From contig WRGW01000112.1 of NCBI GenBank assembly GCA_009786985.1, forward strand, positions 2,330-66,329: a stretch of DNA of 64,000 bases, given 5' to 3'. Positions 496-55,023 of the stretch are shown here, one piece after another. How positions within the stretch are numbered: position 1 is the stretch's first letter; each line of letters begins with the position of its first letter. Source of the stretch: Oscillospiraceae bacterium. GTDB lineage: Bacteria; Bacillota; Clostridia; Oscillospirales; Ruminococcaceae. The translations under genes and the position numbers were made by a program. The notes below the pieces were generated by a model. The model did not search any database, was not told where the DNA came from, and worked only from the letters and a program-made list of their open reading frames with translations.

Positions 496-1116
496 TTACC
501 ATCCCCCTTCTAATTTTTGGACAAACTCCCGCAACGCTTTACCACGATGGCTGACAGCGTTTTTATCATCGGCTGACATTTCGGCGAATGACTGATGTTG
601 TTGGCTCTGCCAATGTACAGGAGACTTAAAGCCTTGCCTGCTGTCGAGATACAAGAATACGGGGTCATACCCAAATCCATTTTCGCCTTGTTCAGAAAAA
701 GCAATCTGCCCCTCACACTCTCCATGAACGAATTTTGTATGCTCCTTGCCATCTCCATTGACATAACATATGCAGCAAACAAATCGAGCTGTGCGTTTAT
801 CGGCTGGGACATCTTTCATACGTTCTAACAGCCAAGCATTATCATAATTCGCCGAATACACCCCTGGTTCGCCGTCAAGTGCGTCAACGCAAAGCCCCGA
901 ATCGTCCGAAATTACTGGAAGCCCAGTTTTTTTATAAATCGCCCTTGCTTTGAGGGCAGCATTTTTTTCAAAAGTATCGCCAGTTTCGGCAACACTTATA
1001 CAAACCCCAGCTTCGGATTGTGAAATCGCTTCATAACCAAGAGGGGCTAATAGTTGCTTAAATTCACGAACTTTTCCAACGTTGTTAGACGCTATAATGA
1101 TTTTCATTTTATTCAT
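496..1116 (-). CDS. rdgB: Non-canonical purine NTP pyrophosphatase (Ham1 family), carrying a ~16-aa repeat-derived insertion
   Basis: ASNNxGK, DDSGL, GFGYDPVF and SHRGKAL motifs. Confidence 0.95.
   Translation of the reverse strand: MNKMKIIIASNNVGKVREFKQLLAPLGYEAISQSEAGVCISVAETGDTFEKNAALKARAIYKKTGLPVISDDSGLCVDALDGEPGVYSANYDNAWLLERMKDVPADKRTARFVCCICYVNGDGKEHTKFVHGECEGQIAFSEQGENGFGYDPVFLYLDSRQGFKSPVHWQSQQHQSFAEMSADDKNAVSHRGKALREFVQKLEGGW
594..642 (-). repeat. Copy of hairpin repeat module inserted in frame in rdgB
   Basis: Minus strand AGCAGGCAAGGCTTTAAGTCTCCTGTACATTGGCAGAGCCAACAACA aligns ungapped to 50614-50660 AGCAGGCAAGACTTCAAGTTGCCTGCTCGTTGGCAGAGCCAACGACA. Confidence 0.85.
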
Positions 1117-23871: not shown

Positions 23872-23900
23872 TTGACTTTTTTGTGAAAGTATGATATAAT
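23872..23900 (+). promoter_or_regulatory. SigA-type promoter of trpEG
   Basis: TTGACT-17 nt-TATAAT with TG extension. Confidence 0.7.
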
Positions 23901-23904
23901 AGTC

Positions 23905-24041
23905 AAACAAGAGCGGAGGTGTCAGTGGCTGAGCCAATGAGCAGTCCGCTTGACGACAAGCCAAACAAGAACTCAAGGTCGACTGAACACAAGCTCGATG
24001 AAGCCTGCGCGCGGTGTTAAGACTTTGTTGGTGGGGTAATA
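23905..24041 (+). repeat. Mosaic of repeat modules forming the trpE leader
   Basis: 23920-23945 is the inverted CTGCTC-NNN-GGC-NNN-GCC-NNN-GACAC hairpin; tail TAAGACTTTGTTGGTGGGGTAATA matches 10699-10722. Confidence 0.7.
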
Positions 24042-28310: not shown

Positions 28311-28410
28311 GCAAGAGCTGCAGGGGTGGCTCTGCCAACCCTCAAAAACCCGAAACCCACAACGGCGAAGTTCTCTCAAGTTACCTGCTCAGTGGCAGAG
28401 TTGCCGACAC
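28311..28410 (+). repeat. Two repeat modules (GGTGGC-TCT-GCC hairpin; CTGCTC..GACAC hairpin)
   Basis: 28313-28342 resembles 60443-60475 and 63908-63940; 28385-28410 resembles 50636-50661. Confidence 0.65.
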
Positions 28411-28554
28411 CCCGCAATTCTCGTTTTGATAAACATCGTGTAGTAATTTGCACGATGTTTTCTACATACTTATGTCTTAACAGCATAAAATGTTCATAAA
28501 AAAACACTTAATTATAATCTTAACATATAGTATAGAATGAAAGGTCGAAATAAA

Positions 28555-37379: not shown

Positions 37380-38267
37380 CTAATATACACTCATAATCCT
37401 AATTCTACCAGAAGTCAAATTCAATTCTGCGGTTTGAATATTTTCTCCACCGAAGTTTATTCCGCTTGCTGTACCTATTCTTCCAGAATCATCACCTAAC
37501 TCATAATGAATTCTCCCTGAAGTCACCCTACTATTAAGCCTAATGCCAGAGTTTTCAGGGAGGTGAATGTTCAAATCTCCACTTGTTACGTTTGCTTTGA
37601 AAGATTCGTTCCATTTTACATATCGCAACGTAACATTACCAGAGGTCAGTCTAACCTCGCCATTACCCGAAACGCCGTTTAAATCTACTGTGCCAGAAGT
37701 CACCCTCACTGTATAGTTTTCGTAAACAGAAACATCTGCTTCTATACGCCCGCTGGTAATTCGTGTATTTAGATTTTTACTATCAAGCGTGAAGTTTTCG
37801 GTGGCGAGACTTCCGCTAGTCAAACGTAGATAGATGTTGTCATATTGTCTTTTGGGAAGCCAAATTCGCATATTAACTCGTGCGTTAATGCCGAATAGTT
37901 GAATGCCCCGTCGCCATCTTTCACGAACGTAGAGTGTATCGTTTTGCACTATAGTTTCGAGCGAGGCTAAATTATTGCTATGTGAAAACTCGATTCTCGT
38001 TTTTTCATCATCAGAAGCGGCAATCACTATATTAGAACTTACACCATGTATGTTGACGTTTGAGAATATTTCGTCTATTTCGGTTATTTCGCCATTGTTT
38101 AAGTTGGTACCAGTAATATTCGCAAAATCACCCCACGAAATGTGTAGATACGGCATAGTATCGTTTGGCGAACTTAACATAGTTACAGCAAAGCCCAAAG
38201 ACGAAATCGCAAATACAGTTGCAAATATAATTGCCAAATTCCTAATTAGTTTTTTTGATTTTTTCAT
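37380..38267 (-). CDS. DUF4097 family beta-strand repeat protein
   Basis: N-terminal TM/signal, repeated xTSGx motifs; context PadR-DUF1700. Confidence 0.8.
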   Translation of the reverse strand: MKKSKKLIRNLAIIFATVFAISSLGFAVTMLSSPNDTMPYLHISWGDFANITGTNLNNGEITEIDEIFSNVNIHGVSSNIVIAASDDEKTRIEFSHSNNLASLETIVQNDTLYVRERWRRGIQLFGINARVNMRIWLPKRQYDNIYLRLTSGSLATENFTLDSKNLNTRITSGRIEADVSVYENYTVRVTSGTVDLNGVSGNGEVRLTSGNVTLRYVKWNESFKANVTSGDLNIHLPENSGIRLNSRVTSGRIHYELGDDSGRIGTASGINFGGENIQTAELNLTSGRIRIMSVY

Positions 38268-39100
38268 GCTGAAACCTCACTTTCTGATATTTCTGTTGTT
38301 TCTGAACATTCTGATTCTTCCAATTGGGTGGATTTAGGTGTGAAAACCTTTTTTCCACAAATCCACATTCCGTGAAGGTCTATAATTGATTTTATGCAAC
38401 CTATAAAGCCTTTAGCAATGCTGATTCCAAGAATCCCTCCAAGCCCACTTAGCGCTAAGAACGCAATTCCGAGGAAGACCATACCCATTGTTGAAATCGA
38501 AGTATCAATTACTAGTGGCAATACAAATGATATTGGCACACCAAGTACTAACGCAATACCGGTTCCAAAAAAACTTATTACTATGCTGAAATAACCGAGA
38601 ATAACTGAGAACAAAGCAGGAATCGCCCACGAAAATACAAATATATCTAGGGCAAGAATCCCGATTAATCCGCCAATGTCAACTTTATTCCCAAACTCGT
38701 TAACTTGAGAACCTATTTTATCGCCAATCTCAGAAGCCTGATTTCTTACGGCAGGCATAAAGTGAGTCAAATGAATTGCCTCATTTATGCCCTTGCTTGG
38801 CTTACCGACTACATTTGCAAATTCTTCAAAATTTAGCTTTAACTTTTCGGACTTGAATTTACTGTCGGTGTTTGTTGTTTGTTCGTTATACTGGCTGGCG
38901 ATTTCTTTAACATCGCCTAAGTTTTCACTGATTTGTTGTTCGGTTAAACCGTGAGAAATACCCTCTTCAAAATGCCTTTCAAAATCATTTAGAATTTCTT
39001 CTTTTTCATTCGGCAAAATTTTAAACTTATCAAGCTCGCTCGAAAGGTTCACCATAAATTCAAACGTGCTATTATTATGATTTTTATTCATCGCTACCAC
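38264..39100 (-). CDS. DUF1700 family membrane protein
   Basis: E.EEIL.DFE.HFEEG...GL.E..I...LG motif then TMs. Confidence 0.82.
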   Translation of the reverse strand: MVAMNKNHNNSTFEFMVNLSSELDKFKILPNEKEEILNDFERHFEEGISHGLTEQQISENLGDVKEIASQYNEQTTNTDSKFKSEKLKLNFEEFANVVGKPSKGINEAIHLTHFMPAVRNQASEIGDKIGSQVNEFGNKVDIGGLIGILALDIFVFSWAIPALFSVILGYFSIVISFFGTGIALVLGVPISFVLPLVIDTSISTMGMVFLGIAFLALSGLGGILGISIAKGFIGCIKSIIDLHGMWICGKKVFTPKSTQLEESECSETTEISESEVSA

Positions 39101-50489: not shown

Positions 50490-50505
50490 TTATTAGTTAG
50501 TGAAT

Positions 50506-50726
50506 TTATTGAAAGTTCGGGCGTAATATCCTGGCGAGTTTGGGTGTAATACCCCCGACGCTTTGCGTTGATTATCTCGGGCGAAGTGAGAGAGGTGCAT
50601 GGCGAGTCTGTCAAGCAGGCAAGACTTCAAGTTGCCTGCTCGTTGGCAGAGCCAACGACACTTCAACTCTCGCGCTTTGCAAAGCCTGCTCTTCGAGAGC
50701 TTTGCCATGCGGTGTTACCGAACATT
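50506..50726 (+). repeat. Cassette repeat copy 3 (longest, 221 bp, nested modules)
   Basis: TTATTGAAAGTTCGGG ... TGCGGTGTTACCGAACATT with a second left end at 50536 and an inserted hairpin module at about 50622-50680. Confidence 0.9.
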
Positions 50727-50791
50727 TGAGGGATATTACAGCGTGGATAATAAATAACAAGGTTTATGAAAACTGATGGAGGTATAGAAAA

Positions 50792-54498: not shown

Positions 54499-54507
54499 GT
54501 GAAAGCT

Positions 54508-55023
54508 ATGCCTAAACATTCAACAGTGTTCGGTAACATCGCATGGCAAAGCTCTCAAAGAGCAGGTTTTGCTTGCCTGACAGAGTCACACCTGTCGCTC
54601 TCCCGCTTCGTGCGTGAGAACCGCCCTAAAAGGCGTGGTATTCCCCCCGAACTTTTAATAGAACCAGAAAAATCAAGCCCATGTGAAATAATAGAAAAGA
54701 AATCGCGTTTTATAGGATTTGCAAAGCGAGTAGCCACCGAAGAAGAGGCAAAGGCGTTCATTGAAAAAGTGCGTTTGGAGCATCGAAAATCTCGCCATAT
54801 TGCATTTGCTTATGTGCTTTCTAATACCGCTAAAACAAATGATGATGGTGAACCTAAAGGGACTGCGGGTCTTCCGATTTATAACACAATCATTCGGCGT
54901 GAATTACAGAATGTCGTGGTAGTAGTCGTGCGATATTTTGGTGGGATTTTGCTCGGAAAAGGTGGCTTGATTCGTGCGTATGGCAGGGCGGCAGGTTTGG
55001 CACTTGAGCATTTGAGAGATTAA
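54508..55023 (+). CDS. yigZ: YigZ/IMPACT family protein with repeat-derived N-terminal insertion
   Basis: EKKSRFIG, DDGEPKGTAG, VVVVRYFGGILLGKGGLIRAY; AGGTGA RBS before ATG 54508. Confidence 0.88.
   Translation: MPKHSTVFGNIAWQSSQRAGFACLTESHLSLSRFVRENRPKRRGIPPELLIEPEKSSPCEIIEKKSRFIGFAKRVATEEEAKAFIEKVRLEHRKSRHIAFAYVLSNTAKTNDDGEPKGTAGLPIYNTIIRRELQNVVVVVVRYFGGILLGKGGLIRAYGRAAGLALEHLRD
54525..54660 (-). repeat. Cassette repeat copy 4, in frame inside yigZ
   Basis: Reverse complement TATTAAAAGTTCGGGG...GACTCTGTCAGGCAAGCAAAACCTGCTCTTTGAGAGCTTTGCCATGCGATGTTACCGAACACT aligns to copy 3. Confidence 0.9.

Follow-up and report, generated by a model that had tools for sequence, protein, structure and literature searches.

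Introduction

Palindromic repeats that lie in frame within genes have been described as Rickettsia palindromic elements (RPEs; Ogata et al. 2000, summarized in PMC10969869). According to that summary, RPEs form several dispersed families in one small genome, occupy unrelated housekeeping genes in frame, and add peptide segments without loss of the open reading frame (ORF), at sites where the fold is predicted to accommodate them. Here we analyzed a 64,000-nucleotide (nt) stretch of DNA, referred to as the window, from the metagenome-assembled genome (MAG) of an Oscillospiraceae bacterium (GenBank assembly GCA_009786985.1, contig WRGW01000112.1, positions 2,330 to 66,329). In its rdgB gene, which encodes a Ham1/RdgB non-canonical purine nucleoside triphosphate (NTP) pyrophosphatase, a fragment of a hairpin-forming repeat lies in frame between two conserved motifs, GFGYDP.F and SFAEM. 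The repeat families concerned are termed module B, module M2 and F3 below.

The repeats of this genome share with RPEs, as summarized, the features named above, with a fold-compatible site being a model prediction for the rdgB insert. A preliminary description of the window had likened the rdgB case to RPEs, and the likeness proved apt, since at least six other conserved genes of the genome also carry in-frame repeat segments. There are differences as well. RPEs belong to Alphaproteobacteria, whereas the present host is a member of the Bacillota, an Oscillospiraceae from the guts of higher termites. RPEs measure about 100-150 nt, as against about 55-66 nt for the modules described here, and they are summarized as full elements, whereas the intragenic pieces here are shortened array fragments. 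A conserved peptide of the RPE kind was lacking for module B, whose frames differ between genes, while F3 was read mostly in one frame. This comparison is made by kind of event and on descriptions only, and no sequence relationship to RPE-1 to RPE-10 is claimed.

Di Nocera et al. (2013, PMC3733652) describe intragenic repetitive extragenic palindromes (REPs) from several phyla and note that replication and repair genes harbor many of them. The same source reports that RPEs carry the CGTC tag, and that CGTC REPs, whose stems measure 8-9 bp and loops 4-5 nt and which carry a CCA tail, have no dedicated transposase. Like the CGTC and GTAG REPs, the modules studied here are small stem-loops. The terminal CTCGACG of module M2 is CGTC-like, as its reverse complement is CGTCGAG, no dedicated transposase was detected, and the host genes include those for RecF, PcrA, RdgB and, as a candidate, RecD2. 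These parallels in the tag, the lack of a RAYT transposase and the repair-gene hosts are suggestive, but the geometry is not that of CGTC REPs, because the present repeats fold as compound hairpins that measure 42-55 nt and have triloops, and the rdgB copy reads GACA instead of GACG. Pneumococcal BOX elements and enterobacterial BIMEs and ERIC are outlined in PMC10969869 and PMC3184786 as modular intergenic repeats. Compared by architecture with those outlines, the present families show the same mosaics of modules, a tandem internal module and occasional ORF overlap, but their presence in frame within essential enzymes is much more conspicuous. The text of PMC10969869 and PMC3733652 mentions neither Clostridia nor Firmicutes. 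A literature search on this repeat family found nothing, which is no proof of novelty.

A repeat fragment in frame within rdgB

The RdgB protein of the window is in most respects an ordinary member of the Ham1/RdgB/ITPA family (PF01725). Its gene gave the single rdgB match in the whole genome. Every conserved motif is kept, and the protein shares all invariant residues of both a 17-sequence and a 21-sequence alignment. The two E. coli RdgB entries in PDB (1k7k and 2pyu) matched at E = 1e-39 and aligned end to end, with a gap at the site of the extra codons (595-642). At this site the ORF translation reads GFGYDPVFLYLDSRQGFKSPVHWQSQQHQSFAEM, and 21 residues separate GFGYDP.F from SFAEM. The corresponding spacing is 4-5 residues in 20 same-genus genomes, 7 in E. 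coli RdgB and 4-8 in characterized family members, which bears out the earlier statement that proteins of this family have only a few residues here.

The extra residues were missing in all 20 aligned same-genus genomes. The alignment of orthologs suggested in the preliminary description therefore confirmed an insertion of about 16 residues, and none of the 20 genomes had the same loop, the finding that would have spoken against a repeat-derived gain. DNA alignments with the genes of three relatives (G003, G006 and G013) and with that for protein P0002 resolved the gain as one clean block of 48 nt. In this nomenclature G000 is the genome under study, G003, G006, G013 and G021 are relatives, and P0002 and similar labels denote homologous proteins. 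The closest relative, G003, has an RdgB 68% identical to the one described here, and that of G006 is 62% identical. In a search of 5.8 billion proteins, the best matches outside the window's own cluster were 61-68% identical, and no closer relative or "empty site" allele for dating the insertion was found.

The gained block has the sequence of a dispersed repeat. The reverse complement of 596-642 aligned ungapped with the rpmH-leader positions 50614-50660; 39 of the 47 aligned bases were identical (83%, the highest identity to any copy), and both the coordinates and the count given earlier were correct. The similarity reached 10 nt further upstream than had been recognized, into GTATCTCGAC (643-652). 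Against an expectation of 2.9 copies, the genome contains 69 copies of this 10-mer, and 63 of the 69 are located within repeats. The 14-mer TTGGCAGAGCCAAC was found exactly at only two places in the window, and four times with up to two mismatches, against 0.4 expected. In searches of the whole genome, the rdgB site was recovered at E = 4.8e-5 by nhmmer with the single leader copy, and at E = 1.7e-3 by a hidden Markov model (HMM) built from 70 strong copies with the rdgB copy excluded. The match falls exactly on the 48-nt indel, which gives independent support for the repeat origin of the insert. Translated in the frame of rdgB, the leader copy reads SRQDFKLPARWQSQRH, compared with SRQGFKSPVHWQSQQH in RdgB.

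Three pieces make up the repeat-derived stretch (Table 1): module M2 contributes its 3' end, a linker follows, and module B contributes its 5' two-thirds. The 3' arm of the module B outer stem is missing, and the native sequence CAG TCA TTC GCC (Q S F A) resumes in its place. Only a 5-bp inner hairpin is retained. The predicted hairpin energy was -6.8 kcal/mol (z = -1.3) for the rdgB copy, compared with -16.1 kcal/mol (z = -3.3) for the leader copy, and the rdgB copy is thus a decayed relic. The earlier proposal that a palindromic repeat had inserted in frame held for the lineage-specific, in-frame gain of 16 codons, whereas the piece gained is a shortened fragment across an M2-B junction whose hairpin has decayed.

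The left junction in relatives reads TTC (A/T)TG (ATT/TAC) GGC GA(A/T), and in the P0002 gene TTC TTG TAC GGC GAT. These alignments suggest that about 6-10 nt of the native loop codons gave way to repeat DNA. The clean insertion envisaged earlier was therefore right as to the 48-nt indel at 595-642, but some native codons were apparently lost with it. No terminal inverted repeats were present at the rdgB insert. The sole flanking direct repeat, a trivial 3-nt CAG, was dismissed as a target-site duplication. The inserts in rdgB and in the gene for ThrRS are shortened at both ends, and the combination of terminal inverted repeats with a target-site duplication that defines miniature inverted-repeat transposable elements was not found in them.

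Repeat families of the genome

The host genome is a fragmented MAG of 1.81 Mb in 112 contigs, with an estimated completeness of 98%. Iterated nhmmer searches seeded with the leader copy gave 141 matches to module B at E < 0.01, so the repeat of the rpmH leader belongs to a real family, as had been supposed. The consensus is 66 nt long and forms a 42-nt bulged hairpin of 16 bp with an AGA triloop. In an alignment of 38 copies, 92% of the stem cells were paired and 10 of the 16 pairs showed compensatory changes, with stem variants such as AGCGGA..TCCGCT versus AGTTGC..GCAACT, and GTGGC/GCCAC versus TTGGC/GCCAA versus CGAC/GTCG. None of 500 shuffles reached the observed score, and slid registers gave only 22-47% pairing. 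We considered rdgB itself as the source of the repeat and rejected it, as the relatives are without the segment and the family has more than 100 intergenic copies with compensatory stem changes.

Module M2 (133 matches) is a 55-nt compound hairpin. Its end, CTCGACG, is present in 230 genome copies against 110 expected, and reads CTCGACA in rdgB. F3, a second hairpin repeat family, gave 76 matches. Six of these are intragenic, and five of the six are read in one frame, KPNKGI...FMP. Module B, M2, F3 and the cassette ends together amount to about 350 or more copies and at least 4% of the 1.8-Mb genome, and self-BLAST assigned 4.2% of the genome to short repeats with at least five copies. The true repeat load is probably higher, because about 20 contigs end inside module B copies; the repeats are the cause of the fragmentation of this assembly. 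A search for Y1/RAYT transposases (PF01797) gave no match in the genome, which is 98% complete but fragmented, while the positive controls were matched. Most frames of the GC-rich modules are free of stop codons, so survival of the reading frame after an insertion is in itself unremarkable.

The modules occur in larger mosaics. The rpmH leader (50501-50760) is made up of at least three modules, A (about 50501-50600), B (50618-50685) and C (50679-50727), each with dozens of copies elsewhere. At many loci the left end of A and the right end of C lie about 75 nt apart, an arrangement in which B looks like cargo carried by a shorter element. In three module B copies (C58:2537-2639, C86:3115-3229 and C105:3121-3222), another hairpin module of 40-50 nt is nested in the inner-hairpin loop, and these repeat-in-repeat insertions share the fixed position GGCAGA^AGCC. 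Tandem arrays of modules were found at C61:11-446, C108:17961-18132, C78:16770-16888 and C101:31649-31761, the first of which contains four repeats of [M2][B] with a period of 125.

Distribution and assembly integrity

BLAST searches for module B among 40 relatives gave matches in G003 (six) and G006 (two) only. These two genomes have the most similar RdgB proteins and few module B copies, and their rdgB genes are without the insert. A pattern scan of 185,579 species genomes, from which records of the window's own genome were possibly left out, found the module B core in three other termite-gut Oscillospiraceae MAGs (Nt197P3bin88, Th196P3bin48 and Th196P3bin137). Single matches in an Acidimicrobiia MAG and a Saccharibacteria MAG were probably due to chance, and the scan gave no evidence of a wider known family. 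On these results, module B is specific to this clade and expanded in this genome.

The rdgB region was present, with zero differences, in three termite-gut metagenome runs. In run X1, one contig of 7.3 kb with a word depth of 301 spanned 400-1200. In run X2, which comes from another sample and study, one contig (400-651) crossed the whole insert and another covered 625-1121. In run X3, a contig extended from 400 to 639 and ended inside the insert. No form of rdgB without the insert was seen in the contigs of the three runs. The chimeric assembly named as a possible refutation in the preliminary description was thus not borne out, since independent assemblies carry the insert unchanged.

The same RdgB loop is extended in three metagenomic orthologs that are 57-60% identical to the RdgB described here. 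P0009 (L031:10480-10545), P0006 (L032:557-600) and P0007 (L033:1180-1245) carry extensions of 9-19 residues that are unrelated to the present insert; nhmmer and BLAST matched them significantly neither to module B nor to this genome. The extensions of P0009 and P0006 contain perfect 7-bp hairpins, with fold z-scores of only -2.0 and -1.5. As an unproven hint, the three extensions may represent independent palindromic insertions at a permissive site.

Predicted structure of RdgB

An AlphaFold2 model of RdgB, built with the 17-sequence alignment, had a mean predicted local distance difference test score (pLDDT) of 86.9 and a predicted template modeling score of 0.81. Foldseek superposed the model on E. 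coli RdgB (1k7k) with a template modeling score of 0.84 at 2.0 Å. Residues 157-175 were without secondary structure, and in the block 161-170 the pLDDT averaged 50. The structure prediction recommended earlier thus gave a coil at the insert, and the model fits a flexible loop grafted on an intact RdgB fold. Of the surface loop that had been proposed, the low-confidence coil and the superposition of the rest of the protein were supported by the model, whereas exposure at the surface is suggested only through the pLDDT values and the DSSP assignment.

Repeat segments in other genes

The preliminary description had treated rdgB as a lone case, which it is not. Repeat segments were screened against long open frames, and the candidates were then checked by Pfam and PDB alignments. 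The segments in PcrA, IspE, RecF and the RluD-like pseudouridine synthase were confirmed as insertions relative to PDB homologs (Table 1). The segment of ThrRS, which is encoded by the sole thrS of the genome, is missing in G013 and G021. IspE, the RluD-like synthase and an ATPase-like protein share the F3 frame KPNKGI...FMP with a HAAS-domain membrane protein of the window. In contrast, the module B frames differ, reading ..QGFKSPVHWQSQ.. in RdgB and ..ALQADCSTTKSPTPPLSS.. in ThrRS. This difference implies that no conserved peptide was selected and favors passive tolerance. Separately, about 50 N-terminal codons of a YigZ/IMPACT-like ORF (54499-55023) overlap a reverse-strand module C copy found by BLAST (about 54527-54572), which could be an in-frame N-terminal repeat or the result of a mis-set start codon.

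Table 1. Coordinates of rdgB, its insert, and repeat copies and segments elsewhere. Plain numbers refer to the window.
Feature	Position	Strand	Description	Evidence
rdgB	496..1116	minus	Ham1/RdgB non-canonical purine NTP pyrophosphatase, 206 aa	ORF, PF01725 homologs, PDB matches
Net 48-nt gain relative to all same-genus genomes compared	595..642	minus	16 codons, SRQGFKSPVHWQSQQH	Protein and DNA alignments, E. coli RdgB alignment
Repeat-derived 57-nt stretch	596..652	minus	M2 3' end, linker and 5' two-thirds of module B	Local alignment with genomic copies; alignment with 38 module B copies
3' end of module M2	643-652	minus	GTATCTCGAC	10-mer frequency
Linker	632-642	minus	AGCAGGCAAGG	
Module B, 5' two-thirds	596-631	minus		
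Surviving inner hairpin of module B	600..613	minus	TTGGC-AGA-GCCAA	Exact 14-mer in common with 50643-50656; fold
Closest intergenic module B copy	50614..50685	plus	With AGCAGG lead-in, in composite repeat of rpmH leader	C112:52947-53014; fold -16.1 kcal/mol
Module B copy	23900..23960	minus		nhmmer C112:26229-26289, E = 7.6e-13
Module B copy	28374..28433	plus		nhmmer C112:30703-30762, E = 5.8e-11
F3 copy in HAAS-domain membrane protein (278 aa, ORF 38264..39100, minus)	38745..38803	minus	About 20 aa in frame, KPSKGINEAIHLTHFMPAVR	nhmmer E = 5e-8
ThrRS	C52:5363-5607		81 aa = [M2][M2][B][partial M2], catalytic domain, between SGHWQKYKDGMF and ALRPMTCP	
PcrA/UvrD	C109:17195-17251		About 50 extra aa including F3 copy	
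IspE	C109:11968-12025		About 13 extra aa, F3	
RecF	C46:7981-8104		About 50 extra aa including M2	
RluD-like pseudouridine synthase	C70:8027-8085		About 20 extra aa, F3	
RecD2 (candidate)	C87:3902-3962		Repeat inside open frame	
Glycosyltransferase-like (candidate)	C80:3480-3608		Repeat inside open frame	
P-type-ATPase-like (candidate)	C49:3185-3294		Repeat inside open frame	

Origin of the insert and alternative explanations

The reading that we consider very probable is that the part of rdgB that codes for the loop received an in-frame copy of a hairpin-repeat fragment, which has been tolerated as a passenger, and that the same happened in other genes. In this lineage, about 54-57 nt of a selfish hairpin-forming repeat would have been copied from an array of modules M2 and B, across an M2-B junction. 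About 54 nt of repeat would have taken the place of two native codons (GGC GAY, roughly 6 nt), the left side showing TAT microhomology, for a net gain of 48 nt. The frame would have stayed open because the insert length was a multiple of three and the frame contained no stop codon. Translation would then add 16 residues to a flexible loop between GFGYDP.F and SFAEM, as a tolerated passenger and not as a functional domain, and after the insertion the copy would have drifted until little of its capacity to form a hairpin was left. The array fragments in ThrRS, RecF, PcrA, IspE, the RluD-like synthase and other genes would stem from the same process. As to the route, copying at microhomologies (TAT on the left and CA/CAG on the right), whether through template switching or through illegitimate recombination, seems preferable to precise transposition, because the rdgB and ThrRS inserts are shortened at both ends, terminal inverted repeats and a convincing target-site duplication are lacking, and no Y1 transposase was found.

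Several points weigh against this reading. The rdgB copy taken alone has moderate statistical support (E about 1e-3 to 5e-5), as it is short and diverged. With the nearest RdgB merely 68% identical, the event is poorly dated and the ancestral junction had to be reconstructed. Assembler contigs drop rare variants, so rare insert-free alleles would be invisible in the metagenome runs. Loop length varies in the three metagenomic orthologs, which implies some natural plasticity at this site. No RNA-seq runs with rdgB were listed, and translation of the insert is a prediction. The insert also lies between active-site motifs, so a loss of activity is possible; the enzyme is presumed to have kept its activity.

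This last point leads to an explanation that we regard as improbable, in which the fragment inactivated RdgB, and the frame of an incipient pseudogene is open through chance or owing to the recency of the event. Many bacteria can dispense with RdgB, and this genome, at 1.8 Mb, is both small and repeat-rich. Moreover, GFGYDP.F and SFAEM...SHR, between which the insert lies, line the nucleotide pocket in solved RdgB structures. Yet the divergence of the copy and the decay of its hairpin argue for age, while the ORF is intact and all invariant residues are kept in what is the only rdgB of the genome. Larger in-frame inserts are found in the essential ThrRS, present as the only copy, and PcrA, and another in IspE, likewise essential, so that such inserts are evidently compatible with function in this organism. 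A still weaker case, to which we give very little credence, can be made for a natively variable RdgB loop whose resemblance to the repeat is coincidental or convergent. The unrelated extensions of P0006, P0007 and P0009 at the same position, and a family-HMM E-value of only 1.7e-3, are in its favor. But the match equals the indel exactly and continues over 57 contiguous nt into the repeat-specific GTATCTCGAC, the leader copy in the same frame yields the similar SRQDFKLPARWQSQRH, and no same-genus genome among the 20 has any extension.

Two further explanations concern whether the insert is present in the protein, or in the cell at all. Hairpin-forming mobile inserts that ribosomes bypass are known from T4 gene 60 and from the byp elements of yeast mitochondria, and the rdgB insert retains its 5-bp hairpin. 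The insert might exist in DNA and be missing from the protein, through removal from the mRNA or ribosome skipping, whereas a translated insert would yield the junction-spanning tryptic peptide SPVHWQSQQHQSFAEMSADDK. Such a loss from the protein appears highly unlikely, even more so than a variable loop. Skipped inserts would need no open frame, and all intragenic copies examined are free of stops with the frame open, including the 48 nt in rdgB and 81 codons in ThrRS. The residual hairpin is weak, as its energy and z-score indicate, and an Rfam scan of the window returned two tRNAs only, with no other RNA family, ribozyme or intron matches. Least credible of all is an assembly chimera in which a repeat copy was misjoined into rdgB, although a MAG in 112 contigs with about 20 contig ends in module B invites the suspicion. 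The contigs of X1 and the independent X2 cross the whole insert and that of X3 reaches 639, the frame is kept, and the copy is unique in sequence.

Implications

In-frame colonization of housekeeping genes by palindromic repeats is a textbook oddity of Rickettsia. To our knowledge, such colonization has been noted only sporadically outside Proteobacteria. The same phenomenon appears to have arisen independently in a free-living or gut-associated Firmicute lineage of higher termites. The kind of event is thus already known from RPEs and intragenic REPs, while the repeat family and the host lineage, a termite-gut Oscillospiraceae, appear to be new for it. The consequence for RdgB is probably a neutral loop of 16 residues, and taken alone the RdgB case is modest; the genome-wide pattern is more interesting, especially the segment in ThrRS.

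A more far-reaching possibility, which we advance tentatively and think rather doubtful, is that this clade hosts an active, transposase-less system of modular hairpin repeats, whose array fragments are copied by template switching at microhomologies and repeatedly create peptide segments in essential enzymes. If true, this would be the first RPE-like case in Bacillota of selfish DNA building protein segments, by a mechanism distinct from RAYT transposition or from transposition by terminal inverted repeats. The new segments would comprise 81 residues in ThrRS, about 50 each in PcrA and RecF, and 16 in RdgB.

The repeats of this genome are also a warning for the annotation and binning of MAGs, as they break assemblies and lengthen ORFs. 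At the same time, the families can be counted in this genome, and large inserts occur in single-copy essential genes. They make it possible to study the spread of repeats for which no transposase is obvious, and they provide another natural system, besides that of Rickettsia, in which the accommodation of random peptide insertions by proteins can be examined.

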